A stretch of DNA of 63,227 nucleotides, filler included, from Chrysochromulina tobinii (lineage: Eukaryota): assembly GCA_001275005.1 (NCBI GenBank). It is 5 parts of 5 records of this genome, joined end to end, with 100 filler letters (N's around TTAATTAATTAA, not from the genome) between each part and the next. Parts side by side here need not be neighbours in the genome. Positions count along the whole stretch, not along the records: positions 47,515 to 57,030 come from JWZX01001380.1; 4 more parts are not named here. One strand, given 5' to 3'. This document shows positions 8,785-57,030 of the stretch, piece by piece. Position 1 is the stretch's first letter. Each line of letters opens with the position of its first letter. The notes under the pieces are model-generated. The model did not search any database and was not told the DNA's origin. It saw only the letters and a program-made list of their open reading frames with translations. The position numbers and the translations under genes were made by a program.

Positions 8785-10065
8785 TCACTTACTTACATTA
8801 CTACACCCGAGGGTGCCCGGCACCTCCAAGCCACCAGGTGGAGCGGTCCCGAGCACCCGATGCAGGAGCACATCGAGCGCGCCGCGGTTGCGCAGATCGC
8901 CCACAAGCATGTGTCCGCAATGCGGGTGCACGTCCATGGAGCACGCCGCCCCATGTCCCGACCTTGCCAGCGCCTCACAGAGCAGCTTCGCCTCCCGCAC
9001 GTCGCCTGCCGCGCCCGAGCCCACGTGCACCTCGATGCGTGGGCACCTTTCGGCAGCGCGCCCCACGGCGCCCATCTTGGTACCCAACATGGCGCACCCA
9101 ACGGCAGCGACCTCGGCTGCCTCTCCGTCAGCGCTGACTGCGCCCAACACGGCGCTGCTCCCGAGCAGCGCGTCGATGGCGGAGGGCAGCCGCGTCATCC
9201 CTCGCTGAGCGCAGCCTGCCTGTACGCGGCTGAGGTCGGCATCGAAGGAGCTCGGCGGCAGCGCCAGCCGCGATCGCTCCTCGCGATCGATGAAGACCTG
9301 CGGCGAGAAGGCGACCACCGAATCTGCCCGGAGTGCAATGCCCGCACGGATGGCGGCGTAACCTCCCATCGAAGCCCCCACCACGACGACGCGCGCCGGC
9401 CGGAGCGCTGCTACCTCGCGCTCGACCGCATCGACCACTGAATCGAAGCCCTCGCGCCCGGAGAGCGCCGCGCCTCCATGCTCGCCGAGCCCGAGGAGGT
9501 ACCTGTGGGGAGAGGGGCGTTGTAGTGAGCACTTGCATGCAGGCCGAGAGGTTCGTACACGGAGTCGAAGACGTACCAGGAGCGCCGCGCATCACGTACG
9601 AAGAGCGCGTGGCTCGCGCCGCACCGCCGGCACGCGCCGACAAACTCATGGCGCGCCACGCCGGCCGTGCCGCCACCCAGGGCTGCGAAGGCCACCACGA
9701 GCGTGCCGCACGGCGCCGCCGTGTCATACATCCGCAGCAGCGCATTCGGGTCGACGTTAGCGTGCACAGCCGCGGCGAAGCCGCCGGTCGGATTTCCAGC
9801 GCCAGTCTGTGCAGGCGCCGCCCCCTTTTCAGGCGCGGGCAGCGGCGTCGGCGGCGGCTGTCCCTCGTGACCTGGCGCGCGGCGGGCTTCAAACTCGACT
9901 ATGACCAGCTTATGGTCCGTGGCGGTGGTGGCCACATGCGCGCAGCTCCGCAGCCTCCAATTCCGGCTGAACGACTCGTCCGCGTACACGTAGTCGATGC
10001 GTGTGTCGAAGCGGCACGTACCCACCAACGACCCGTCCCGAGCGGCAGCAGCGCCGCCTGCGCTC

Positions 10066-13825: not shown

Positions 13826-16800
13826 ATGCGCCAGCGAAGCCAGCTGGTCTTAACGGAGCAGAACTCGGGTGGTACCTCCACCGCGTCGAGCACCCCGCTC
13901 GTCGCGTCGAGCGATGAAGCCTCCACGACGCCAAGGCACGACCCGTACCACGATCCAGACCCGCGGCCGGAGCTCGTGGAGCAGTGCATACAGCCCAGAC
14001 ACTGCAGCCTGGCCGAGGGCGACGCGCGCGAGTGGATGCACCGGCGGCTCTCGCACCTGGGCCACGTCTTCAACGAGCGCGGCGCGACCTACATGGCATG
14101 CGTTTGGTTCGAGCTCAGCTTCGCAGCCAGGCCAGACGCAGTCGCGGAGCTCATCAGCGCCATCAACATGCGCATGAAGCTCGGCCAGTGGGCGCTCGTG
14201 GAGGCGCTGTACCGGCGGATCGTGCGCATGGACCTGAGCAAGGAGGAGCGCGACGCCGCCTACCGCAAGCTCGGAGAGGCCACCTCCCTCAAGAGTGCTC
14301 GCGGAAGGCTTCGAGACAGCTCGAGCTCGACATCTCCCGCCAGCGACGGCACTGGCGCGAGCGCCTGTGCGGCTTCGCCTGGTCGGCTCGTGATGCAGCC
14401 GCAGACGCCGCTTTCGGCCAGCCACTCCAAGGCCGCGCCCAGCGCCTCGAGCGCCCTCGACGCTCGTTTCGAAGGGCTGAGCGCCGCAGAGGCCGAGCTC
14501 GGGCTGGTCCTCGAAGCGCCCGCGCTCGTCACCTCGGCGTCGTCGCTCACGCCGAAGCAGATCGAGCGGCTGCTGCCTCTGGTGCGCGGGTGCGCCTTCG
14601 CGGCCAACAAGGCGTGCGAGCTCGAGGCGGCGCAGCACTGGTTCGAGGCGAGCTATGCCCTCTCGTGCTCTGATTGCCTCTGATGACCTCCGATGACCTC
14701 TGATGACATCTGATGGTCTGCCTCATCAGGCGAGCTATGCCCTCTCGGCTGCCACGTGCGACCTCCTCTCAATCGCCGATGTGCGAGCGACGCGCGATCC
14801 CAATTGCGCCGTCGCCGCCGCCGTGCACGAACACCTGCGCCACGTCGCCGCCGCCAAGGAGAGGCGCATAGTCGAGCGCAAGGAGGGCGGCGACGGCGGC
14901 GTGCGGGGCACGGCAGTCAGGCCGAGCGGCGGTGCGAAGGGCTCCGCCGGCAGCAGCGCCGCCGGAACGGAGAGCGTCGTCTCGAATGTGCTCACGTTGC
15001 AGCGGCTTGAGGAACGTCTGGTAAGCACGTGGGGGTCGCTCTCGGCGCAGAACGAGGCGCTGCAGGCGACGCTCGAGGAGCACGCGCACGCCACGCACAG
15101 CCTTCGCGAGGAGGTAGCACGTCTACACGAGCTCCTCGCCACCAGGGATGGCCCCATCGAGCGGGGAGATCGGGGAGATGGCGGCGGCGGCGACCGCGAC
15201 CGCGACCGCGACCGCGACGGCGACGGCGAAGACGACGGCAAAGACGACGGCAAAGACGACGGCGACGGCGACGACGGCGGCGACGGCGACGGCGGCGGCA
15301 GCCCCATGCAATCGGAGAGCGTCCGCGTCCATTCGGTCAGCTCGTCCCAAGGCGGCCGCTGGACCACAGCCCCTCTGCTCATCGAGAGCGCGTCCACGGG
15401 TGCAGGGGCGGGCGTATGCGCGCACTCGCCCCAAGCGGCAGGGCCCATTAAACCCGTTGCAGTGAGGGCCGCCCCTCTCTCCAAGACCCAACCCCTCTCA
15501 AGGCACTCCCAAGACCCAAGTGAGGGCCGCCCCTCACTCAAGGCACTCCTCTCCAAGAGCCTCAAGGCACCCCTCTCCAACGGCTCGCACTCAAAGGGAG
15601 GCAGCGCGAGAGAGCGATCCAGCTGCTTCTCGCCCATCGCATCCGACGACGGCTCCAAAGATGGGCTTGCCTCCCCACTCCCCATCGCACGCGATAGCTC
15701 CGCCTATGAGCTTGATGGCAGCAGACGCAGCATGCGAGGCGACGACTCTCTTGCCACCGCTCGGGCCTCACCTGCGACTTCGAGCACTGGTACCGAGCAC
15801 GACTTGAGTCGAGGAAGGAATGCTGGTGCGCAGCTGAAGATGAAATGGGAGGAGGTCGAAGCCGATCGTAACATCGCGGTCATGCTCAAGGACGTCAGAG
15901 GGCGCATCGCCGAGTACGCGGAGAGGTCGGTACGCAAGCAGCCGACGATCGCGGACCTCGAGGCTGAGGGGACGCTGTACGTGCAGCTGCTCAAGGCGAC
16001 CAACCTGCTCGCGGCTGATGCTAACGGCCTCTCGGACCCGTACTGCAAGCTCATGCTCGGTGATCAGAAGCAGCGCTCGCGGAAGCTGTACAAGACCCTC
16101 GAACCCGTGTGGAATAACGAGGTGTTTGCCTTTGCGGGCTGCCTGGGCCAGCTCGTCGCCGAGCCTCTCCAGCTGACCATGTATGACTTCGACATTCTCT
16201 CGAGTGATGATAAGTTGGGAGAGGTGCAGATCGAGCTCGCCGACCACACGTACTGCAATGAGATCCGGCGGGATCTGACCGCTTGCCTGGACACACAGGG
16301 CGAGGTGTACATCCAGGTGTGGTGGGAGCCTGAGTCCACGGGAGACACTGATGGTGGCCGCCGGCCGAATCGGAAACGACGAGGGGCCGTTTCGAGTGAC
16401 GCGCCGAGCTATGCGTCGCGCCTCAAGGAGTTCATACTCGAACATGTGTGAAGACCCCCGCTGATGGTCACCTTGATTGCCCCCGATTGTGACGCGCGCC
16501 GTGCTCACGCGCCGTCGTCCGCTGCGCTGCCTAATTAGGTGATCCCTGAGAAGTTCCAGACGCTCAAGGGGTGCTGTGCCTCCATGTGCTTCCCAGTGAT
16601 CCGGCCCGAATCGCGCTTCCGCTCGGGATGGAACGTGGCCCTGGCCTTCTTCATCCTCTATTGCGGCATCGCGGTGCCTCTCGAGATTGCGTTTGAGCCA
16701 GATATGGTCCGTCCTCCTACCACTCGCCTTCCCAAACCTCGCCTCGCAGCTCAACCCTCGCCCCGCTCAACCCACACCCACCCCTGCCCATCCCTCAACC

Positions 16801-22235: not shown

Positions 22236-24114
22236 TCAGAGGTGCCCAGGAGGGGCCCACTTGAACTTGCTCTCAGTCTTCTTCTTGGCAATGGTTTGCT
22301 TGTTGATGGCGGCAGGCGCGTTGCTGAATTGGGTGTGGATGATGTGATCAGAAGCAGGCAGCAGCGTCGCACTCATTCTTATCACGGTTGTTTGCATCGA
22401 CTCCACGTAGTGGCGTTGGACAGTTAGGGGCTGCGCGACGCTACGGCCAGCGTCGTTCCACACGAAGTGGTTGAGCAGTGGATCCTTGCCGACCGCAGCG
22501 CTCGCAGGGGCGAGCGTGGGCGTGAGCTTCGGAGTGAGTGTCGGCGCGGCGGGCGCGGGCGCGGGTTTGGGCGCGGGTGGGTAGGCGGGCAGCCACTGTT
22601 TTCTTGCTTTTTGCTTCTTGACACGATGCCCTGCCGCCGCCTCTGCCTCCTCTGCCGACGCTCGCTCCGCCCCCGCTGCCACTTTCTTCTCTTTAATGCG
22701 CCTCGCGTAGTGCAGGGCCGCCTCGATGGCCGTCCGAAAGGTGCCCAGGGAGCGAAGTGAGCCATTCTCCATGAACTTTGCTTGGAACCCCTCGCCGTTC
22801 TTGTACACGCCCTTGTAGCCCGTCACACAGCTCGGCGACGGCACGAGCTCGAGCCCCTCGGCCTCCGCCGCCGCCCGAACCTCATCCGCCGTGAGCGGCA
22901 CCACCACGACATTCGCCGCTGCCACATCCGCCTCTGCCCGCTCCGCCCCAATGTGCCTAGCATAGGACAGGGCCGCCTCGATGGCCGTCCTAAAGGTGCC
23001 CAGGGAGCGAAGTGAGCCATTCTCCCTGACATTTGCTTCGAACCCGCCGTGGCTTTTCTTGTACACGCCCTTGTAGCCCGTCTCACAACTCGCCGACGGC
23101 ACCAGCTGGAGCCCCTCGGCCTCCGCCGCCGCCCGAACCTCATCCGCCGTGAGCGGCACCACCAGGTGCTTCGCCGCTGCCACCTCCGCCTCAGCCCGCT
23201 CCGCCCCAATGTGCCTAGCATAGGACAGGGCCGCCTCGATGGCCGTCCTAAAGGTGCCCAGGGAGCGACGTGAGCCATTCTCCCAGACATTTGCTTGGAA
23301 CCCCCCGCCGTTCTTGTACACGCCCTTGTAGCCCGTCTCATTGCTTGCCGACGGCACCAGCTCGAGGCCCTCGGCCGCCGCCGCCGCCCGAACCTCGTCC
23401 GCCGTGAGCGGCTGCGCGTCCGCCGCCTCAGCCGTCGCTCGCTCCGCCCCAATGTGCCTCGCATAGGACAGGGCCGCCTCCTCCGGCGTCGCGAAGCTGC
23501 CGAGGTGGCGCGACTTGCCATTCTCCTGGACCTGCGCCTTGTACCTGCCGTCGTTCTTGTACACGCCCTTGTAGCCCGTCTCATTGCTTGACGACGGCAC
23601 CAGCTCGAGGCCCTCGGCCGCCGCCGCCGCCCGAGCCTCGTCCGCCGTGAGCGGCTGCGCGTCCGCCGCCTCAGCCGCCGCTCGCTCCGCCCCAATGTGC
23701 CTCGCGTAGCACAAGGCTGCCTCACCCGGCGTCGCGAAGGTGCCGAGGTGGCGCAGCTTGCCATTCTCCCAGACCTGCGCTTGGTACCTGCCGTCGTTCT
23801 TGTACACGCCCTTGTAGCCCGTCTCATTGCTTGACGACGGCACCAGCTCGAGGCCCTCGGCCGCCGCCGCCGCCCGAACCTCGTCCGCCGTGAGCGGCTG
23901 CGCGTCCGCCGCCTCTGCCGCCGCTCGCTCCGCCCCAATGTGCCTCGCATAGGACAGGGCCGCCTCGATGGCCGTCCTAAAGGTGCCCAGGTAGCGACGT
24001 GAGATATTCTCCCAGACCTTTGCTGCGAACCCCCCGCCGTTCTTGTACACGCCCTTGTAGCCCGTCTCATTGCTTGCCGACGGCACCAGCTCGAGGCCCT
24101 CGGCCGCCGCCGCC
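22236..24114 (-). CDS. Tandem AP2/ERF-like DNA-binding repeat protein (at least 6 repeats, 5' truncated by gap)
   Basis: Six ~81-aa (243-nt) units of the form TGYKGVYK.....A.V.ENG..R.LGTF.T..EAAL.YAR. Confidence 0.85.
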
Positions 24115-24214
24115 NNNNNNNNNNNNNNNNNNNNNNNNNNNNNNNNNNNNNNNNNNNNTTAATTAATTAANNNNNNNNNNNNNNNNNNNNNNNNNNNNNN
24201 NNNNNNNNNNNNNN
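24115..24214. other. Assembly linker (N run + TTAATTAATTAA)
   Basis: The same linker occurs four times and has stops in all six frames. Confidence 0.97.
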
Positions 24215-41927: not shown

Positions 41928-44060
41928 ATGTCGAGCGGATCGTCGAGCGCGAGCGGCGAAATCGGCGTGGGGCTGCGCAACCTCGGCAACACATGCTTCA
42001 TGAACACAGTGCTGCAGTGCCTCGCGCACACGCCGCCAGTCTTTGCGTACATGCGTCGACAGAACCATGGACAAAAGTGCCTCCATCGAAAGAATGAGGG
42101 ACAGAATGGGCCCACACCTGCGAAATTCTGCTCCGCCTGCGCCTTGGAGCAGCTTGTGAACCAGATGTACAGTCGCGGCGCGCAGCCGTTATCGCCCAAG
42201 CTTTTCGCCGACAACCTGAAGGTGTTTTCCAAGGCCATCCAGCTCGGGCGGCAGGAGGATGCACATGAGTTCCTGCGCTGCCTGCTCGACAACCTCACAC
42301 TTCACCTCGGCCAGGTGCCCTCGGTCGTGAAGAAGGAGGGCTCGAAGCATACGGTCGTGCAGTCCTGGTTCCAGGGGAAACTGCAGAGCACGATCAAGTG
42401 CATGGGGTGTGGCGCCGAGTCGCACACGCTCGATCCCTTCCTCGACTTGTCCCTCGAGCTGCAGGCGGACGGTGGCGAGCTGTACCGAAGCGTCGAGCAG
42501 GCGCTCAAGGGCTTCACCAAGACCGAGCGCCTCGACGGCGACAACGGGTACAAGTGTGATGTGTGCAAGCGTATGTGCCGTGCGACCAAGCATTTCCGCA
42601 TCCACTCGCTGCCCAAGGTGCTCACCATCCACCTGAAGCGCTTCTCCTTCTCATTTGGTCATAGCGGCGGCTCGGGCAAGATCAACGCGCCCGTGCTCTT
42701 CGAGAACGAGTGCGATATAAGCCCTTTCACTGTCGATCGTGAGACAGCCAAATACTCGCTCTTCGCGGTGGCCGTGCACCAGGGCAGCAGCACGCACTCG
42801 GGACACTACTACGCATTTGCTCGCGCTCCGGTCGCGCCGTACCCGCCCGGCGAGGCCAAGGCACCTCCGGCGTCCTGGTACATGTTCAACGACTCCAACG
42901 TGCGTCGCGTGAGCGAGAGTGACGTGCGCAACGCGGGCGCTTACATACTCTTCTACTCGCTCAACGATCCCGCCGCCTTCCGGCGGCTGGCACCACCCTT
43001 GCCAACGGCCAACAGCGGCGCTCCAACGGCGGCGACGGCAGCTCACGCAGCTGACGTGCAAAGCGGCCAGAGTGGTCGACTTTCACCGCAGCTCACCGGC
43101 CTACAGATCGGGCCGCAGATCGGGCCGCGGATCGGGCCGCAGATCGGGCCGGTGCCACGACTGGACAGCAGACCGACGGCCTCATACAGCGTCGAGGCTC
43201 CGTCCATAATCCCCGCGCTGCGGCCGAGCACGGCTACAGAGGCCATTGTTCACGGCAGCCACTCTCGCACGCCCATTGGCAGCCACGACGAGAATGCAGG
43301 TTTAGGTACGAGTGGGTCGTCACCCCCCAAGGTGGAGGCGGCTTCGCCGCACGCGAACAGCACGCGGACAGCAGCAGCACACGCAAATGGTGTCGCAGCG
43401 ACAGACGGGCCGTGCCTAGATGCTGTGAACAGGAAGCACTTGCCTGCTCCCGGCTGCACGCCTTGGGGCGGAGGCACTAAGCGTAGCTTCGAGGAGGCGA
43501 TGGGGATGGAGAGGTCCCCAGCGAGCTCTCATCTCGAGCGAGCTCGAGCGAGCCCCGGGCTTTCCGAGTTGGGAGGCCAAGCGGTGAGCGCCGCGGTGAG
43601 CGCCGCGCTCGCCATCCCACGAGACAAGACGAGCGGTTCGGAGCTATCCGCGTCTGGGCAGCAGCGGCTCGCCCAGCTGCGCGCGGCACCGCAGACGCAG
43701 GAACACCTCTCAAGCTTAGGGCGCAACCTCATCTCAGCGATTGGGGAGAGTGACTGGTGGGCGGAGACGGCACGCGCGCTGCATCATGACGCAGTGCGTA
43801 TCGTGACAGAGCTTGCCCCGGCTCGACCTACCGACGCGGCAGAGAGAGCTCAGCAGCATGCGAAGCTGCGCGCGAAGCTCGATGGCGGCCTGCTCGATCA
43901 GACCAACTGCCAGCGGCTGCAGACCTTGTTCCTCGCCAGCTACAAGCAGCTGAAGCAAGAGAATCGCTTTGATCCGGTGAGCCAGATCCAGCAGCTCAGC
44001 GAACTGTGCAAGCATGTCCTGCAGCAGGCGGGGCACCGAGACGTCGAACCAATTCGTTGA
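41928..44060 (+). CDS. Ubiquitin-specific protease (peptidase C19, USP36/42-like)
   Basis: GLRNLGNTCFMN Cys box, QEDAHEF, HQGSSTHSGHYYA His box, FND. Confidence 0.93.
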   Translation: MSSGSSSASGEIGVGLRNLGNTCFMNTVLQCLAHTPPVFAYMRRQNHGQKCLHRKNEGQNGPTPAKFCSACALEQLVNQMYSRGAQPLSPKLFADNLKVFSKAIQLGRQEDAHEFLRCLLDNLTLHLGQVPSVVKKEGSKHTVVQSWFQGKLQSTIKCMGCGAESHTLDPFLDLSLELQADGGELYRSVEQALKGFTKTERLDGDNGYKCDVCKRMCRATKHFRIHSLPKVLTIHLKRFSFSFGHSGGSGKINAPVLFENECDISPFTVDRETAKYSLFAVAVHQGSSTHSGHYYAFARAPVAPYPPGEAKAPPASWYMFNDSNVRRVSESDVRNAGAYILFYSLNDPAAFRRLAPPLPTANSGAPTAATAAHAADVQSGQSGRLSPQLTGLQIGPQIGPRIGPQIGPVPRLDSRPTASYSVEAPSIIPALRPSTATEAIVHGSHSRTPIGSHDENAGLGTSGSSPPKVEAASPHANSTRTAAAHANGVAATDGPCLDAVNRKHLPAPGCTPWGGGTKRSFEEAMGMERSPASSHLERARASPGLSELGGQAVSAAVSAALAIPRDKTSGSELSASGQQRLAQLRAAPQTQEHLSSLGRNLISAIGESDWWAETARALHHDAVRIVTELAPARPTDAAERAQQHAKLRAKLDGGLLDQTNCQRLQTLFLASYKQLKQENRFDPVSQIQQLSELCKHVLQQAGHRDVEPIR

Positions 44061-47514: not shown

Positions 47515-47686
47515 CGAGCGACGCGACCGCTGCGTGGCAGTGTTTCGCGTGGTAGTGGCTGGTCGGTACCTTGTGTGTCGATTCAACTGACCCTTTCTCA
47601 AATTGGTGGCTTTGTTCGTCTACAATGGTAGGAGGGCACGACCTTCCTATTGGCCTGGTCGTCCGAGGAAGACCAGCTGAGCAGCC

Positions 47687-50600
47687 ATGGTGGTGCATGG
47701 AAATGCCGAGATCCCCAAACTCGTCGCGCAGATGGCGTCAGGCACCATGGCCGAAAAGGAGAAGGCCTCGGGCTATCTCAACCGGATCCTTCAGGCGCAC
47801 CCGGATCAACGGGCCAAGAATGCAGACGCGATGATCAAGGAGGGCGTGATCGCACCGGCACTGGCGCTGCTCAAGGAGGGCAATGCACCTGGCCAAACGG
47901 CGGCCTCGGGCATCATCTACTGCATCGCCGAGGGAAACCGCGAAATCCAGGTGCAGGTCGTCCAGGCGAATTGCATCGAGCCGCTGGTGAGCATCCTGAA
48001 ATCGGGCAGCCCGGGCGCGCAGGAACACGCGGCCGGAGCGGTGGCGAGTATCTCGGAGGACATATCGACGCAGAGGCCGCTTATGAAGGCAGGCGCCATC
48101 CCACCACTCGTGCAGCTGCTCCGCTTTGGCTCAGCCAGCGCGCAGGTGCACGCGTCGAACGCGGTCGCGCACCTGTCGGCGGGCAACTTGCAGGGGCAGA
48201 ACCAGATCGCTGCGGCCGGCGCGATCCCGTTGCTGCTCAAGCTGCTCGAGAGCGGCAAGGCGCAGATGGCGGCGGCATTCGCGATTGGGCGTCTGGCCGC
48301 GGGTCACGCGCTCAACCAGTTGGCCATCGCCGAGGCAGGTGGAGTCGCACCGCTGCTGTCGCTGCTGAACGTGACGAGCGTGGAGACGAACGTGGAGGCG
48401 GCGAACGCGCTGCTCGAGCTCGCGCGCGACAACCAGCTCACTCAGACCGCGATCGCCAAGGCAGGCGGCATCGGTCCCTTGCTCGCGATGCTTCCAAGTC
48501 GTTCCGCGATGGCGCAGAGTCGTGCGGCCGGTGCGCTCGCGCAGCTGGCACGCTTCAATCGGGAGAATCAGGACTCGGCCGCGCGACAGGGGGGGCTGCC
48601 GCTCCTCGTCGGTCTTCTGCCCGGCACGAGCGGCGCGGAAGTACAGGTGAGTGATGCAGCTAATGGCTTCTTAGTGCCTGACTGATTGCGACTGATTGAT
48701 ACTGATTGAGGCTGATTGCACGACCTCGGTGGTGCAGGCGATGTCCGCTCTCGCCATCGCCGAGATCTGCCGAAACAACAAGGGCAACCAGGATCTGCTG
48801 TACGACTTAGGTTGGCTCCCACCACCCACGCACCCCGAACCCGAACCCGTACCCGTACCCTAACATGACCTGCTGTCTGACGCACCCGGAGCCCGAGCCC
48901 TAACGATCCCGTACCCGTGCCCTTACCGTACCTGCTGTCTGACCATAGGCGGCATCCCACCACTGACGGTGCTACTCAAGCACAAGGAGAGCGCGGAGGT
49001 GCGCGCGGAGGCGGCGGGGGCCGTGTATTGTCTGGCCGATGGGCACGAGAACAACAAGACTTCCATCGCCTCCGCGGGCGGCATCAAGCCGCTCATCACG
49101 TTGCTTGGCAGCGGCACGGCGCGCGCGCAGGAGCACGCTGCCAACGCTCTCGCGAGCCTCTCGTTCGGCAACGTTGAGAATCAGGTGATCTGATGACCGC
49201 TGATGGGCGCTGATGGCCTCTGATGGCCTTTGATGGCCTCTGATGGCCTCTGATGGCTTCCTCTGATGGCCTCTGATGGCCTCCTCTGATGGTCTCTGAT
49301 GGCCTCCTCTGATGGCCTCTCACGGCCTCTCATGGCCTCTGATGGCCTCTGAGTGCGTCATGATTGCCTGTGCTCGGCCAGATGGTGATCGTGGCGCCGC
49401 TGCTCGAGATGCTCAAGCTGGGAAACGCCGATGCGAGGACGCGTGCCACGACGGCGCTCTGGCGGATGGTGCACGAGAACCCGGAGCAGCAGCGCGAGAT
49501 TGCAGCTGCGGGCTTCGTCAATCCGGCTGACCTCGTCCACCTGCTGCGTGAAGGCGTACCGGCGGCCAAAGAGTTTGCGCTCTGGTCCATCTCCCTCGCG
49601 ACGGATGAGACCAACCAGAGAATGATTATGGAGGAGGGAGGGATCCGACCGCTCGTGGCGGCACTGATGGCGCCCGCTGTGGAGCAGCGCGAGCATGCGG
49701 CCGCTGCCCTCGCACGCCTCGCGACCGGCTGCAGCGAGACGCAGCTTGCAATTGCGCGTGAGGGTGGCGTGGCGCCGCTCATCGCGCTGCTCGACGCCGG
49801 CATGGGCTCGCAGTCGACCCAGGTCAAGGCCGCAAGGTGCCTCGCGCTGATGGCCGAGCAGAGCGAGAATAAGGACGCGATCGTGGCCGCGGCCGCCGTC
49901 TCCCAGCTGGTGAGTCCCATTGATGGGAGATTGAGGAAGAGATTGATCGGGGAGATTGATCGGGAGATTGGTGGGGAAAAGTCTCGTCATATGGCCTCTG
50001 ATGCCCACTGCTTGCGCACTCGTGGCCGCCGTCGCCGTCTCACCCGCTGGTGGCGCTCCACTCTGACGAAACTTCTGATCACTTGCCTGGATGGCCTCAC
50101 TGAGTGCGTCACTGATTGCCCCGTTCATCAGGTGGCGCTCCTCTCCGACGGTGAGACGGAAGCGAAGCGAATGCGCCGCCGCGGCGCTCGCGCGGCTCGC
50201 CCACAACGACGCGCAGACGCAGCTGGCCATCGGCGAGGCGGGTGCGATTGCGCCACTGGTCAATCTGCTAAGAGGCGATCGAGGCGAGACGGCGCAGGAG
50301 GAGGCGGCGGGGGCCCTGTTTGAGCTGGGCGCACAGGCAGTCAACCGTCTTGCGATCACGGAGAGCGGCGGCATCGGGCCGCTCGTCGTGCTGCTCGGAT
50401 GCAGTAACGCCAAGGCGCGAGGGCACGCGATCGGGGCGCTCTCGCGCCTGTCGATCGAGAATGCGAACCGCGTCCTCATCATCAAGCAGCTCGTCTCGAT
50501 GCTCAGCGACCAGGGCGCAGGCGCACAGGAGCAAGCGGCCGCCGCGCTCGCCAATCTTGCGAGGGACTCCGCGGACAATCGCGTCTCGATCGTGGACGCG

Positions 50601-53600
50601 GGTGGGATCGCGCCGCTGCTTGCGCTGCTCGATAGTGACTCCTCTACGGCGAAGGAGAACTCGGTCCGCGCCTCGGATGGCCTCTGATGAGCACAGATGG
50701 TCTCGGATATGGCCTCTGATTGCACGGCCAAGGAGACCTCGCCCACCGTGGGCGGTCGCCCAGCATGCACATGCTCAGCACGACGCCCCACTTCCCCCTT
50801 CCCCACAGGTGCGCGCCCTCTCGCAACTCGCCCATCGCTCGTGGGCGAACCAGGCGGCGATCGCCAAAGAGGGCGGCATCCCGAAGCTGGTCAACGTGCT
50901 CTCGTCAGCGGTGTCGAACATCAAGGACGTGGCGGCGGCGGAGCTTTGCTCTCTCGCGGCGGCGGCTGTGAATGAGATGTGCAAGGGCAATGCGCCCAAC
51001 CAGGCCGCGTTCTCGTCGAATGAGGCAAACGCCATCACGCCGATCGTACAGATGCTCGGCAACCCCGACCCGCAGATGCAGGCGAGTGCGAGCGGCGCCC
51101 TCTCAGAGTGCATGCTGTGTGCATCTCTGAGTGCATGCTGATTGCCTCCCTCATCAGGCGAATGCGAGCGGCGCCCTCTCAGCCCTCGCGCGCGGCAGCC
51201 CAGACAACCAAGCGGCCATCGCACGCACAGGCGCCATCGCGCCTCTGTGTACGCTCGTACGCGACGGCTCGCCCGAGACGAAAGAACAGGCGGCCTCCGC
51301 CCTCTGGTCACTCTCGAACGAGAACGCGCCGAATAAGGCCACGATCGCCAAGCTGGGCGGCATCGAGCCACTCGTGGGCTTGATTGTGAGCGGCGCGTCC
51401 GAAAAGTCCGTAGCCAATGCGGCTGGTGCGCTCGCGTCGCTCGCGGCGAAGCACACCGAGAACCGCTCGTCGGTGGCGAAGCGGCTTGTGGCGCTGCTCA
51501 ACGGCAAGGTGGCCGAGCGGGCGGTGCGCGTCATGTCAGCGATCTCGACTCTCTGTGCGGACAACCAGGCAAACCAGCTCGCGATTGCCAAATTTGGAGG
51601 CATCCCGCCTGTGATCGGCTGGCTCTCCTCACCCGACCCAGGGGCGCAGAAGGCGGCGGCGTTCGCGCTGCTCCATCTGGCCAAGGAGAATACGACGACG
51701 CAGGTGCTCATTGCCAATATGAATGCCTCTCATTGCCTCTAATAGCGCCTCTAATTGCCTCCTCGACGCAGGTGCTCATTGCCAATATGAATGCCTCTCA
51801 TTGCCTCTGATTGCCTCTAATTGCCTCCTCGACGCAGGTGCTCATTGCCAATATGAATGGCATCCCGCCGCTCGTGCAGCTCGTCTCTTACGGCTCCATC
51901 GAGGCCCAGGAGTCGGCCGCGCGCGCGCTCTGGCACCTCGCATCATCCAATGAGGCGAAGGAAGCGATTGCGGAGAGTGGCGGCATAGGGCCGCTCGTGG
52001 GCATGCTCTCCGTCGAGGACGAGCGCTCCCAAGAGATTGCGACGGTGACCATCTCGCGCCTCGAGGATTCCCCGTCTGATGAGGCGCGATTCACCGTCTG
52101 ATGAGGCGCGATTCCCCGTCTGATGAGTATCCTCCTCTTCCCCATCTACAGGTGACCATCTCGCGCCTCGCGCGTGGCAACCTGAAAGTGAGCATGACCA
52201 TCGCGGAGAGCGGCGGCATCGTGCCGCTCGTGCGTCTCATTTGCTCGGGAGATCGCTCCGGAGATCGTCACATGAGCTCGGGGCAGACGGTGCTCCAGGC
52301 GACGGCCGCCCTGCATGCAAGTGCTCACCACGGCGCCATTTCCCCACAGACGGTGCTCCAGGCGACGGCCGCCCTGGCCGAAGTGAGCCTCGTACCTGCC
52401 AATCGCGAGCTGATCGCACGCGCGGGCGCCATCCCCGCCCTCGTCTCGCTCCTCGCGAGCTCCGTCGCGGGCACTCCGGAGACGGCCGCTCGAGCGCTCG
52501 GGCACCTCGCCCGAGACGGCGCGCTCAAGCTGCCGCCGAGCGACGACGCGGCCGCAGCAGCTGTGAACGTTCACACATCCTACCCCGACACCGGCGGCCG
52601 TCCCCGGCAGCCATCTCGCGAGATCGGACGCGAGATCGGACGCGAGATCGGACGCGATCTCCCGACCGATCTCCCGCCGCCGCCGACGGGTGAGTGCGCC
52701 CTTGCGCCCGACGACGGCGCTCGAGACGGCGCGCTCTTCGACGGCGCGGCGCGTCGCCGCCTGATCCGTACATGCGGCGGCGTCAGGCACCTTGTCCAAC
52801 TGCTCGACCCGGTGAGCGCGATCGAGCTTCAGAATGAGGGACGAGAGGCCAAGAGCAGCAAGCACTTGTGGATGGGCGTCAAAGCTGTGGCTACGGTGTC
52901 CAGCGCTGTGCCGAGCGCTGTGCCGAGCACGGTGACGAGCGCTGTGCCGAGCGCGGTGTCGAGCGCTGTGCCGAGCGCGATGTCGAGCGCTGTGCCGAGC
53001 GCGGTGTCGAGTGCCGTGCCGAGCATGAGTACGGAAGGCTCCGCGGACCCCGAGCTGGTTGTGGGAGTGCAGGAGGCGGCAGCGGCGGCGCTGGCGGACC
53101 TCGCATACGGTGATGAGGAGATCCAGGCGGCCATCATTCAGGCGGGGGGCGTGGTGCCGTTGCTCGCGATAGTCCGGGGCGTTTCGTCAGCTTTGTCGAT
53201 TGCGTCGGGAATGAGCTGCGCGATCTCGGCGGGCGCCCAGGAGCACGCCGCACGTGCTATCTGGAACTTGGCCGCCTCGCCTGACAATCAAGACGTCATC
53301 GTCGAGAACGGCGCCATCCCCGAGCTCGTGACCCTAGTACGTGATGGCTCGCCCAGAGCGCAGGAGGTCGGGGCGGCGGTGCTATCCGAGCTCGCACACG
53401 GAGCGGTGCTGCTGCACCAGAGGCTACAGCTGCAGCAGAGGGCGCAGCTGCAGCACCAGACAGAGGAGCAGCTGCAGCGGAAGGTGGATGCGGGAGGCGA
53501 CGGCGGCGTGGCAACGGCTGAGGAGGACGACGACGTGGAGCCGTATGCAAGTGCTCACCACGGCGCCATTTCCCCACAGGACGACGACGTGGAGCCGTAT

Positions 53601-56600
53601 GACAACTCGAGGCTGACCGAGATCGCGTCCGCGGGCGGGATCGCTCCGCTAGTGGCGCTGCTGGGGAATGGGAGCGTCGGGGGCAAGGAGCACGCCGCCT
53701 CGGCCCTGTTTTTTTTGGCGGCACACCCGGCGAATCGCCTCTCTATGGCCAAGGCGGGCGGCATCGCGCCGTTGGTGGCGCTGCTCGATGAGGGTACTCA
53801 GGTGGACGATGCTGATTGCTACTGATTGCCACCGAGTGCCACCGAGTGCCACCGAGTGCCACTGATTGCCACAGAGTGCCACTGATTGCCTCTGATTGCC
53901 ACAGAGTGCTACTGATTGCCACAGAGTGCCACTGATGGTCACAGAGTGCCACTGATTGCCACTGATCGCCACTGATTGCCTCTGACCGCCACTCATCACC
54001 ACTGATCGCCACTGATCGTCACTCAGGCGGCTCATGAGCACGCGTCGAATACGCTCGCTCGGCTCGCGATCCATTCGACCGAGAACCAGACGGGTATCTC
54101 GAAGAAGCTCGTCGAGCTGCTCCGAGTGCCTCGGTCCATGACGCAGCAGCGTGCTGCGCGCGCCCTGCGATCGCTCGCTGTGAACAACCCGTCGAGCTCC
54201 ACGATCATCGTGAACGCAGGCGCCATCTCGCCGCTCGTGACACTCCTCGCCACAGGTGCGACGGGGGCGAGGGAGGAGGCCAAGGTCGCACTGCACACGC
54301 TCGCCCTCAACGCGCCTTCGAATCAGCTTGCGATTGCGACTGGGTTGGTGGCACTCCTGTGCACGGGGGCGGCAGAGGCTCAGGAGCATGTGACACGCCT
54401 GTTGCTCACCCTCGCCACCGATGCCACCAACCGCGTCGCGATCGCCAAGGCGGGCGCCATCGGCCGTCTGGTCATGCAGCTCAAGCAGGGCAAGGAGGCG
54501 GGCGGCTCCTTGGCTTGCCAGACGAGCCTCAAGTCGCAAGAGCTCGCCGCGGCCGTGCTCGCCCAGCTGTCGGCCGACTCGGAGGCCAACGTGGGTGCGA
54601 TCGCCGCGTGCGCGAGCACCAAGGCGCTCATCGCGCTGCTCGGCTCGGCCTCCGAGTCGGCGCAGGCGCACGCGGCCGCGGTGCTTGCGGACTTGACGCG
54701 CGGGTCGAGGGAGATGCAGGGAGATCAAGGGAGATCGGATGAAATCGAGGCGAGATCGAGGGAGATGCAGGAGGACGTGGCACGCGAGGGCGGCATCGAG
54801 CTGCTCGTTGGGCTCCTTTCGGGCGAGCACGCGTGCACCGAGGCCGCCAACGCCATTTGGTCGATCGCGGCCGGCGACGAGGACATGAAACACATGGTCG
54901 CCCGAACGGGCGCAATCCCGCCGCTCGTAGCGCTGCTGGGCCGGCCAGGAGTCGTGCGCCTTCGTGCAGCAGGTGCGCTCGGTACGCTCGCGTGCGGCTT
55001 AGCCGTCCACCAGAACGCAATCGCAGCTGCGGGCGGCCTCGCGCCGCTCGTGTCTCTCCTCGGCGATGGTGGCAAGCTCAGTGCGTCGCCCGCGGAGAGC
55101 GAGGCGCACGCTGCGAGATCGCTCGCGAGCCTCGCGGACGGTCACGTGAGCAACGCGATCGCGATCGCCGAGGCGGGCGGCATCGTACCTCTCGTGCAGG
55201 TGGCGGATTCTGATTGCCACCGATTGCCACCGATTGCCACCGATTGCCACTGATGGCCTCTCAATTGCCACTCATAGCCACTCATAGCCACGGATTGCCA
55301 CGGATGGCCACGGATGGCCACGGATGGCCACTCATTGCCACTCATTGCCACTCATTGCCACTCATTGCCATCGTACCTCTCGTGCAGCTGCTCCACGACG
55401 CCACGCCCGCCGCCGCCGCTTCTGCCGTCGCCGCCGCCCCCGAGGCGCACACGTACAGGTGGCGGGTGGCGCCTGGGACGGCGCCATTGGAGTGGGCGCG
55501 CGAGGAGGCGGCAAGAGCGCTGCATGCGCTCGCGTGTGGCTGCCCCCCCAACCAGTCCGCCATCGCGGAGGCGGGCGGCATCGCGCCACTCGTGCGCCTG
55601 CTCTCCTCGGGCACCGAGAGTGCTCAGGTGTTCAGCGCCAAAGCGCTTGCCTCCCTCGCGGTGGAGCACGAGGCGAATGAAGCGACCATCTGCGCGCAGA
55701 TGGTCCAACTCCTTGGCTTGCCGGACAAGCAGGCGGCGGCACGCGCGGCCCAAGCGATCGCACGGCTCGCTCACAAGGGGCTGCCCGCCTCCCAGGCCGC
55801 CTTTGCGCGCGCAGGCGCCATCAGCTTGCTCGTCACGCTGCTCAAGAGCGCGGGCCACTCGCTCGGCGCCTCCAAGGAGAGCGCCGCCTCGAGCGCCTAC
55901 CTGCAACGGGAGAGCGCCGCGGCGCTCGGGGCGCTCGCCGAGGGGCACCCGGCAAACCAGGCCGCCGTTGCGGCCGAGGGGGGCATCGTTCCACTCGTGG
56001 CGATCCTGAAAGAATACCATCAGCCTGAGGTGTATGGTGAGGTGGCGCGAGCGTTGTGGAGGGTAGGTGGTCATCCACCGAACCAGCTCGCCATCGCCCA
56101 CGCCGGCGGCATCACACCGCTCGTGCACCTGCTCGCGCAGTCTGTGAGCGTCGAGGCGAGACGAGAGGCGGCGGGTGCCCTCGGGGTGCTCGCCCAGCAG
56201 CCAGAGAACCGAACAGCCATCGCGCGCGCCAATGGCATGCCGGCCCTCGTGGCTCTGTTTGAGCTCGACTCGATCTCCGCCGCCGAGCAGGCCGCTTCGG
56301 CGCTCACGACCCTCGCGACCGATGACGTTGCCAATCAGCGCGCGATTGCGACGGAGCTGGTGGCCACCCTCAACAACTCCCCGAGCGTGGCCGCTCAGGA
56401 GCAGGTGACGAAACTCCTAGGCGCTCTCGCTACCAATCCCGACAATCGCGGCGCCATCGCCGACGCCGGCGCCATCCCGCCTCTGGTGCGACAGCTTGCA
56501 GCTGGCTCGTCGGCCGCGCAGCAGTCGGCCGCGGCCGCCCTCTTCCAGATTGCGCGCCACTCAGCCCGGACGCCCGTGGCCATCGTCAAAGAGCTCGTCT

Positions 56601-57030
56601 CACTGCTGGGCTCGCATACCGTAGCCGTCCGCCAGCATGCGGCCGCTGCGCTCAGGGAGGTCGTGCTCGCCTCAGCATTCGCGGGCTCGGGGCTCTCCAT
56701 GCCGGGCGACATGGCGAGCGTCGTGCCGGGCGGCATGGCGAGCGTCGTGATGGCCGATGGCGCCGAGCCGCTCGTCGCGTTCCTCCGCGACGGATACGTC
56801 GAGGCGCAAGAGTATGCGCTCTGGTCGCTCTCCCTCTCGACCGAGCCGAAGCACAAGATCGCCATCCTCGAAGCGCGGGTGATCGAGCCGCTCATCGCGG
56901 CGCTCAATGGGAAGCTCTCCGCCGACGCGCAGGAGCACGCGGCATGCGTGCTCTCCTTGCTCACTAGCACGGCGCCGACGGCGACCGATCTGGTCCTCGA
57001 GGATCAAACCGCCGCCGCCGCCGCCGCCGC
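47687..57030 (+). CDS. Giant armadillo-repeat protein, multi-exon, 3' truncated by gap
   Basis: Dozens of AGGIxPLVxLL..G...AQE.AA.AL repeats. Introns 48647-48737, 48811-48948, 49185-49381, 49910-50131, 50664-50808, 51082-51157, 51704-51837, 52045-52151, 53802-54026 and 55200-55387 restore the frame. One +1 frameshift near 50168. Confidence 0.88.
51696..51859 (+). repeat. Three exact copies of a 30-nt exon segment spanning AG|GT
   Basis: cgacgcaggtgctcattgccaatatgaatg at 51696, 51764 and 51830. Confidence 0.95.
52315..52349 (+). mobile_element. 35-nt splice-acceptor cassette (candidate introner-like module), copy 1
   Basis: atgcaagtgctcaccacggcgccatttccccacag is identical at 53545-53579 and lies between 30-nt direct repeats. 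Mobility is inferred. Confidence 0.55.
53545..53579 (+). mobile_element. 35-nt splice-acceptor cassette, copy 2
   Basis: Identical to 52315-52349; lies between 24-nt direct repeats. Confidence 0.55.

Follow-up and report, generated by a model that had tools for sequence, protein, structure and literature searches.

The window analysed here, 63,227 nt of DNA from Chrysochromulina tobinii, joins contigs separated by N spacers (at positions 24115, 28219, 47415, and 57031). A gene with several introns, encoding a long armadillo-repeat protein, occupies positions 47681 to 57030 on the plus strand, where the contig ends at an N spacer. The Pfam Arm family was recovered in all three pieces scanned, and homologues point to the same assignment. 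In the sequence comparison, the best named relatives are from C. tobinii (35%) and Emiliania huxleyi (45%).

Two inserts lie on the plus strand of this gene. At site 1, a 30-nt target duplication, whose first copy (52284 to 52313) is exonic and starts with CAG and whose second copy (52347 to 52376) is an exact repeat, flanks a cassette at 52313 to 52349 that runs from the family head to CCCCACAG, reads HASAHHGAISPQ in frame, and is apparently retained in mRNA. At site 2, a 24-nt duplication (copy 1 at 53524 to 53547, starting with AG; exact copy 2 at 53578 to 53601) is overlapped on both sides by a cassette at 53545 to 53579 that is shortened at its 5′ end to ATG and is missing from the sister lineage. 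An exact 35-mer, as the first-pass annotation had reported, is found at 52315 to 52349 and at 53545 to 53579, and it cannot be extended on either side; chance pairs expected within the window number about 3e-9 for 30 nt, 6e-6 for 24 nt, and 6e-12 for 35 nt. That annotation placed the cassette between the 30- and 24-nt repeats. The repeats are indeed exact, but they do not enclose the whole 35-mer: at site 1 it has CAG in common with repeat copy 2, and at site 2 it overlaps the flanking repeats by ATG and AG. Because bases of the 35-mer overlap the repeats, there is junction microhomology, counted as raw overlaps, at both ends of both sites, and the end of the site 1 target equals the upstream flank of another copy (C2) over 9 nt. 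The nonduplicated insert measures 33 nt at site 1 (52314 to 52346) and 30 nt at site 2 (53548 to 53577), so that a nonlocal module stands between the repeats and neither unit consists purely of local exon copy, as a tandem genomic duplication would. The units are 63 and 54 nt long, matching the in-frame lengths given earlier and corresponding to 21 and 18 residues, and both are multiples of three and free of stops. The in-register donor position is AC at site 1, with an alternative GC at 52299, and GA at site 2.

The 35-mer is part of a dispersed family of modules that occupy about 37 nt from the intron end and recur genome-wide, with similar copies in introns at many unrelated sites. Nine distinct full copies were found, all in sense orientation, and DNA contigs imply dozens or more further copies: at least 37 diverge at the cassette head (at 52313, run X9), and at least 27 + 34 diverge inside it. 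These contig counts are kept as a floor only, an estimate by summed contig depth having been dropped as unreliable. A search with the 16-nt head, allowing three mismatches, gave 5 matches in the window against 1.24 expected; the one at 43432 to 43447 was discarded for want of an acceptor tail. Since the same 35-mer also occurs at two unlinked loci (C1 and D1), the identity of the copies at sites 1 and 2 does not prove that one derives from the other; descent of site 2 directly from site 1 was not established, and the AGG return at site 2 would better fit a parent followed by G.

Among 11 aligned copies, only the 3′ 37 nt or so and a few upstream bases align, the 5′ parts being locus specific, and the whole-intron similarity of introners is not seen. 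All copies end in CCCCACAG rather than in the poly(A) or simple repeat of non-LTR elements and SINEs, with which they share variable duplications and 5′ truncation (the shortening to ATG at site 2). Duplications measure about 11 to 12 nt (9503 and C3), 24, 30, and about 42 to 44 nt (D2), an overall range of about 11 to 44 nt that differs from the fixed short duplications of TIR or MITE introners; those of C1, C2, and D1 are diverged or unclear. Unassigned extra bases separate duplication and head in C3 (21 nt) and at 9503 (about 27 nt). Terminal inverted or direct repeats are not visible in the 11 aligned copies, and a hairpin in the cassette head was set aside, four of five folds being unremarkable (z of −0.5 to +1.0), with a z of −2.3 for the 50763 copy only. 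The longer parent copy encoding a reverse transcriptase or transposase that had been suggested did not emerge: no reverse transcriptase, transposase, or HUH family was found in 24 window open reading frames of at least 220 amino acids, chosen from 59. Rfam returned no match over the window, a gapped cassette pattern had none in viral contigs or prokaryote genomes, and the sequence words searched in four lake runs were absent. The picture of a portable 3′ splice-site module with many copies, all sense rather than randomly oriented, and duplications of variable length is thus upheld.

Diverged relatives of the cassette end two introns, at the places previously annotated. The first, an older 145-nt GT-AG intron at 50664 to 50808 of the same gene, carries its cassette at 50763 to 50808 on the plus strand (with CTCAG, as described), and, compared at 12 positions, its start agrees with the next exon at 8. 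The second, a 74-nt GT-AG intron on the minus strand at 9503 to 9576 (cassette at 9503 to 9540), lies on another contig, again as described, in a gene resembling alpha/beta-hydrolases; its start resembles the next exon at 9 of the first 11 positions, and its excision restores the frame. Introns of the armadillo-repeat gene with other 3′ modules present a similar footprint. In the 76-nt GC-AG intron at 51082 to 51157, apparently spliced in run X11, the first 25 nt are a copy (one mismatch) of the next exon; so are the first 22 nt in an intron of two tandem units at 51704 to 51837, and the first 19 nt in a 107-nt GT-AG intron at 52045 to 52151, which is apparently spliced in contigs that enter cassette 1. 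The footprint is therefore not specific to the cassette: of eight introns tested whose 3′ modules are different, three agree with the next exon at 11 to 12 of 12 positions, against a maximum of 7 of 12 among 56 cross pairs. A mirror case, in which the duplication provides the acceptor, is found at 55181 to 55199 and 55369 to 55387, and the repeat-flanked introns given here are a lower bound for the window.

RNA contigs pass from repeat copy 1 into each cassette in all four RNA runs, and no joint skipping 63 or 54 nt occurs in the contigs of these runs. Contigs starting in cassette 2 reach 53802 and then the next exon, and loose ends match the next exon in 4/4 runs; the repeat-rich neighbouring intron at 53802 to 54026, which serves as an internal control, is thus spliced out of contigs that hold cassette 2. 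The 401-nt contigs of X13 and X16 begin at 51830, as a spliced upstream intron predicts, and enter cassette 1. Because RNA contigs cross both cassettes yet skip the neighbouring introns, the inserts appear to be retained in-frame coding insertions of 21 and 18 residues, a result that is firmer at site 2 than at site 1. It rests on assembled contigs, which lose minor forms, and the RNA libraries may contain DNA; coverage drops to zero just past cassette 1 in X13 and X16, and the 30-nt repeat may mask a spliced form from 31-letter words. Use of the cassette as an acceptor, proposed earlier for the whole set, is supported for the two introns with diverged cassettes and not for sites 1 and 2. At 50664 to 50808, RNA contigs end at 50665 (X11 and X12), one X11 contig starts at 50808 by length arithmetic, the DNA contig is unbroken, and the intron appears to be spliced out, an unspliced contig of X15 also covering it up to the end of the intron at 51082 to 51157; at 9503 to 9576, acceptor use is supported by the reading frame only.

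Insertion with target duplication is supported by empty alleles at site 2 and at C3. The site 2 insert is present in all 22 proteins of lineage A and missing, as an exact 18-residue gap, from all 14 proteins of the sister lineage B, one fragment among the 37 proteins being unassignable to a lineage. C3 is a 72-nt GT-AG insert, carried by some strains (L008 and L009), that, when cut out, leaves exactly the sequence of L010; its absence from L010 and L011 is the presence/absence polymorphism of an introner. The site 1 insert is absent from four proteins, all from ENA (4 of 10 ENA proteins of lineage A versus 0 of 13 of lineage B; P 0.024), by precise loss or by assembly collapse of the 30-nt repeat; since these proteins end in, or continue into, the translated next intron, they derive from DNA. 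Further full copies lie within 600 nt of two of four anchor sites, 3 copies against 0.3 expected at window density (P of about 0.004, a rough value, as anchors were picked for having a copy). Locus D contains a 12-nt in-frame internal piece of the cassette that does not end in CAG (in L013), a 16-nt antisense piece, and tandem duplications spanning acceptors. Copy D1 carries the flank of D2, which in D2 is intronic; together with the variable duplications, this fuzzy end taken from a parent recalls Replitron-1.

On balance, we favour the reading that the 35-mer is the common form of an intron-end module of about 37 nt copied by microhomology-guided template switching, and that both reported copies are apparently retained in frame, unspliced. 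During replication or break repair, a growing strand would quit the target where the target resembles the module head, copy the module from an existing intron, and return to the target further upstream by annealing at (C)AG or AGG, with the result that 11 to 44 nt would be copied twice. A duplicate starting with GT or GC would offer a usable donor and yield a precise intron in any frame, while one starting with AC (site 1) or GA (site 2) would splice poorly; we propose that the inserts at these two sites persist because they are stop-free multiples of three. As every successful copy would be a new template, the module could spread without a transposase, and intron gain would likely be a by-product of error-prone DNA copying.

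Template switching is favoured over a transposase because of the junction microhomologies, the same footprint in unrelated intron types, and the small scraps, and switching at the DNA level is favoured because internal and antisense scraps exist. The preference of the first-pass annotation for RNA- or repair-templated insertion over cut-and-paste is thus borne out insofar as no cut-and-paste signature is seen, but its RNA-templated branch is not. Microhomology at both junctions (again as raw overlaps) and an insert from elsewhere in the genome, often nearby, are what repair by template switching would leave. Against it stand the sense orientation of 9/9 full copies, the exact CAG end of both apparently unspliced copies, and the divergence of many contigs at one head position (at least 37 at 52313 in X9), which is sharper than random switching predicts.

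The first two of these features fit an alternative that we consider unlikely overall, in which an excised intron attaches by its 3′ end to the displaced sense DNA strand, a strand joining that amounts only to reverse splicing's first step, or uses that end to prime reverse transcription at a nick. The DNA end upstream would be extended across the target, giving the duplication, and a microhomology joint would connect it to a 5′-truncated intron copy. Without extra assumptions this explains why the 3′ end falls exactly at the acceptor, both apparently unspliced copies included, and it suits the sense orientation (9/9), the fuzzy 5′ side, the flank in D1 that is intronic in D2, and a footprint common to several intron types among the introns listed. 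Precedents are described in a model that derives Micromonas introners from R-loop reverse splicing (PMC4540971) and in the retrohoming of linear group II introns, where 5′ ends are truncated and junctions show microhomology (PMC3280974). However, the internal and antisense scraps and the mirror case at 55181 to 55199 and 55369 to 55387, where the duplication is the acceptor source, would require another process, and the 5′ end would not be fixed by a lariat block, since copies reach about 14 nt further upstream than the putative CTCAC branch A. The study of group II introns reports 5′-exon deletions, its main text leaving duplication unmentioned (PMC3280974), and selection alone predicts a sense bias among spliced copies. 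Less probable again is the claim that the spliceosome itself seeds introns, with the 3′ tail of an excised intron becoming attached by ligation to a nearby gene's sense DNA strand, and gap filling duplicating 10 to 45 nt of exon as donor; if it held, any intron end could propagate without a transposase, and failed events would persist as in-frame peptide inserts, an unselected record of insertion chemistry.

A very short nonautonomous transposon, mobilised in trans by an HUH (Replitron- or Helitron-like) or non-LTR enzyme and carrying the acceptor by chance, is improbable. Dozens of copies at least are implied, Replitron-1 insertions are described as fixed at one end, fuzzy at the other, where parental flank is carried, and variable in their target duplications, and C. 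tobinii has yielded a Replitron protein (bioRxiv 2022.12.15.520654). Yet the 11 aligned copies lack terminal direct or inverted repeats, the site 1 and 9503 copies have no significant hairpin (z of −0.5 to +1.0, with −2.3 in the 50763 copy only), there is no A-tail, the 24 window open reading frames include no transposase or reverse transcriptase family, the 37 nt fall short of the 52 to 53 nt per end common to Replitron-1 and N1 (bioRxiv 2022.12.15.520654), and each of several unrelated modules would need its own mobiliser. Very improbable is the original proposal that both inserts are new, efficiently spliced introns (donor GA at 53526; AC at 52287 or GC at 52299): GC donors from duplications appear functional in the same gene (51082 to 51157), GA donors are recruited from target duplications in dinoflagellates (bioRxiv 2020.10.14.339549), and four proteins lack the site 1 insert, but no skipping joint occurs in 4/4 RNA runs that skip neighbouring introns, cassette 2 is kept in contigs that splice the next intron and so needs no GA donor, the insert-free proteins come from DNA, and both inserts are stop-free multiples of three, in contrast to the GT-led copies, which measure 74, 76, and 145 nt (C3, at 72 nt, likewise being a multiple of three).

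The transposase-free origin of spliceosomal introns is an open question, for which C. tobinii apparently provides natural segregation of filled and empty alleles together with a culture that has DNA and RNA data. One insertion process would have two outcomes: where the duplicate starts with GT or GC, spliced introns, and elsewhere, inserts apparently kept in frame; because no splicing filter acts on the retained copies, the way they are oriented and where they end can tell DNA template switching apart from insertion by an RNA tail. Gene predictors would wrongly excise the 54- and 63-nt inserts as noncanonical introns, and introner screens requiring whole-intron similarity or short fixed duplications could overlook the family.

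Among known systems, introners of Symbiodinium and Polarella (classes 4 to 6, 8, and 10) likewise have a repeated intronic acceptor, a donor from duplicated exon, and presence/absence polymorphism, but their duplications are described as fixed at 3 to 9 nt, many with inverted repeats (bioRxiv 2020.10.14.339549; PMC9860276), whereas here they vary from about 11 to 44 nt and make up much of the intron, and what the copies have in common is only its last 37 nt or so. Unlike the present cassette, the Chrysochromulina introner of PMC9860276 brings its own donor, and its duplication is 4 bp long. Replitron-1 and Replitron-N1 of Chlamydomonas share one fixed end, a fuzzy end with parental flank, variable duplications, and copy-and-paste spread, in an account whose description of them does not mention intron creation (bioRxiv 2022.12.15.520654); the cassette is far shorter, with no terminal direct repeats by inspection, no RG rule on the matching strand, and no HUH gene among the 24 window open reading frames. 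Linear group II retrohoming with Pol theta end joining offers a precise intron 3′ junction, a truncated 5′ end, and microhomology joints (PMC3280974), and the R-loop model offers sense-only insertion (PMC4540971); those routes, as described, give 5′-exon deletions or clean insertions (PMC3280974, PMC4540971), in contrast to the long duplications here, where no ribozyme or reverse transcriptase is seen. Intron gain by AGGT tandem genomic duplication also takes its donor from duplicated exon (PMC3443670), but here a foreign acceptor module stands between the copies and AGGT is not required in the target. Also similar is Daphnia, where introns gained at staggered double-strand breaks are polymorphic in populations, have direct repeats, and are attributed to repair (PMC4202315, PMC3443670); the difference is that here the filler is a recognisable, reused piece of another intron, long repeats flank it, and in-frame copies that are apparently unspliced persist.

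The 35-mer cassette, an intron end that carries an acceptor and closes with CAG, occurs in two exact copies in the window, at 52315-52349 (site 1) and 53545-53579 (site 2). As the first-pass annotation had proposed, the two copies sit within different duplications, with exact 30-nt repeats spaced by 63 nt at site 1 and exact 24-nt repeats spaced by 54 nt at site 2, and the diverged relatives at 50763-50808 and 9503-9540 are likewise present. The repeats and the 35-mer pair are real, chance being negligible. The 35-mer overlaps the repeats by CAG at site 1 and by ATG and AG at site 2, showing that the foreign part is only 33 nt and 30 nt, respectively, and that bases are shared at both junctions. 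Both sites lie in a long armadillo-repeat gene. The host is probably a haptophyte, although the closest named proteins, those of Chrysochromulina tobinii and Emiliania huxleyi, are only 35-45% identical. Within region 50166-50169, the base at 50169 is missing in RNA contigs of runs X11 and X12 and in one contig of the DNA run X9, which makes an assembly error in the window likely, shifting the frame of the gene there. The exon that holds the two sites also contains low-complexity in-frame expansions (52904-53030, 52614-52660, and 53410-53480, plus strand; SAVPS, REIG, and Q-rich), which vary among strains and lineages and add to the indications that slippage is frequent.

An exact scan of metagenome contigs for the 35-mer retrieved 14 loci belonging to four sites, as follows: three loci at site 1, two at site 2, four at site C, and five at site D. 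Additional diverged copies (C2, C3, and D2) were found in the flanks of sites C and D. Together with the window's four, there are nine distinct full copies; all have the same sense as the neighboring introns or reading frame, so the sense orientation noted earlier holds throughout, and six of the nine are followed by GT. By a rough test, at least one further full copy lies less than 600 nt away at two of the four anchor sites. Contigs of run X9 diverge just before 52313 (37 contigs), just after 52336 (27), and just after 52337 (34), which indicates that the cassette exists in at least dozens of copies.

Splicing was followed in six RNA runs, as assembled contigs, in sets of three and four runs with one run common to both. 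At site 2, contigs from all six runs pass the first repeat copy into the cassette as far as 53574, and in every run of the four-run set, contigs starting within this cassette reach 53802 and then the next exon, showing that the neighboring intron is skipped and the cassette kept. At site 1, contigs extend to 52337 in four of four runs; 401-nt contigs (X13 and X16), on the assumption that the upstream intron has been removed, begin at 51830, and a DNA contig starts there too. For the four-run set a single joint is listed, in X14; it contains 26 foreign letters and probably derives from a different locus, and none of 63 or 54 nt appears. With RNA contigs running into both cassettes and no such joint, the suggestion of two new noncanonical introns is unsupported. 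Assembled contigs lose minor forms and join words rather than molecules, RNA libraries may contain DNA, a spliced form at the 30-nt repeat may be hidden from 31-letter words, and in X13 and X16 cover drops to nothing or almost nothing just after cassette 1 (52379-52602), so that the case for retention is stronger at site 2 than at site 1. The low-cover stretch encodes an armadillo repeat, and GC bias or filtering is possible. For the diverged copy, RNA contigs end at 50665 (X11 and X12) and one X11 contig begins, by length arithmetic, at 50808, the pattern that splicing of the GT-led intron 50664-50808 would leave; a DNA contig is unbroken across this interval, and X15 has an unspliced contig spanning it. 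Judged from the sequence, the copy at 9503-9576 must be spliced if the frame is to hold.

Filled and empty sites were compared in 37 proteins closely homologous to the exon product (14 from the sister lineage, 22 from the window's lineage, and one unassignable fragment). The site-2 insert is absent, as an exact 18-residue gap, from all 14 sister-lineage proteins (this lineage being 88% identical) and present in all 22 of the window's lineage. The window's own allele, with perfect repeats, accounts for 8 of these 22, and the remaining 14 have an altered cassette and an altered second repeat. Among proteins that cover site 1, the insert is present in all 13 of the sister lineage and in 12 of 16 of the window's lineage. 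Sister-lineage proteins (P0004-P0006 and P0053-P0062) have QTMLQ in both repeat copies of this site and those of the window's lineage have QTVLQ in both; this matching V-to-M difference suggests either that the two 30-nt repeats were homogenized or that the insertion happened in parallel. Four proteins (P0003, P0038, P0040, and P0041), on two different site-2 backgrounds, precisely miss the site-1 insert, which may have been lost cleanly or have collapsed during assembly. Metagenome loci L008 and L009 carry copy C3 as a GT-AG insert of 72 nt, and taking out the 72 nt yields the exact sequence of L010. Target duplications span approximately 11 to 44 nt.

The duplication footprint is general, beyond the cassette. 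Three of eight tested introns of the gene, with other 3' modules, start as a copy of the next exon (11 to 12 of 12 matches, versus a maximum of 7 in the cross-pair control, n = 56); the 50664 intron has 8 matches. A repeat-rich 188-nt intron outside this test (55200-55387, plus strand) is the mirror case, its acceptor being supplied by 19 nt duplicated from the end of the upstream exon (55181-55199 and 55369-55387, plus strand). Strains differ at locus D by a 12-nt in-frame internal piece of the cassette, by a short acceptor fragment in place of three bases, and by tandem duplications spanning acceptors, and copy D1 bears the flank of D2. Also at this locus, a 16-nt antisense cassette piece lies inside an apparent exon (L012:843-858 and the equivalent position in L013), with a C/T variant that differs between strains as the D1/D2 variant does. 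On the plus strand, the region of a C2-domain gene holds a candidate 82-nt GC-AG intron (14648-14729), which opens with an 18-nt copy of the following exon, and an insert of 58 nt flanked by 19-nt repeats (15463-15520); an AP2-domain protein on the minus strand (22236-24113) consists of tandem units of 243-258 nt.

We lean towards microhomology template switching by a growing DNA strand, which the features of the family fit. The strand would depart from its target at a microhomology, copy an intron end, and return upstream on the target, which would thereby be duplicated. Selection would then sort the products, with GT- or GC-led duplicates becoming precise introns and others surviving in coding exons only if stop-free and a multiple of three in length. 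The main rival, insertion of the RNA tail of an excised intron, would explain why retained copies end exactly at CAG and lie in the sense orientation, but it leaves the cassette scraps and the mirror case, with its acceptor from a duplication, unexplained, and we consider it rather unlikely. A Replitron-like mini-element is more doubtful still. The family agrees with the description in bioRxiv 2022.12.15.520654 in having one fixed and one fuzzy end and duplications of varying length, but the cassette is too small and lacks terminal repeats, and no mobilizer was found among the 24 window ORFs scanned.

Among known systems, the cassette works like the acceptor-carrying introners of dinoflagellates, as described in the consulted parts of bioRxiv 2020.10.14.339549 and PMC9860276, but its family has neither the whole-length similarity nor the fixed short duplication reported there. 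About 72% of elements are uncategorized according to the available part of PMC12130899, in whose main text "Chrysochromulina," "haptophyt," and "replitron" are all absent. From the portions consulted, Daphnia is known to have introns with direct repeats that arose through repair (PMC4202315 and PMC3443670), and 4- to 30-bp repeats near splice sites are broadly reported (PMC11782384). In the main texts of the open-access literature searched, no description was found of the cassette family or, in haptophytes, of long variable duplications with a partial intron module. The repeat-born intron gain seen here is a new variety and comes with useful natural controls.
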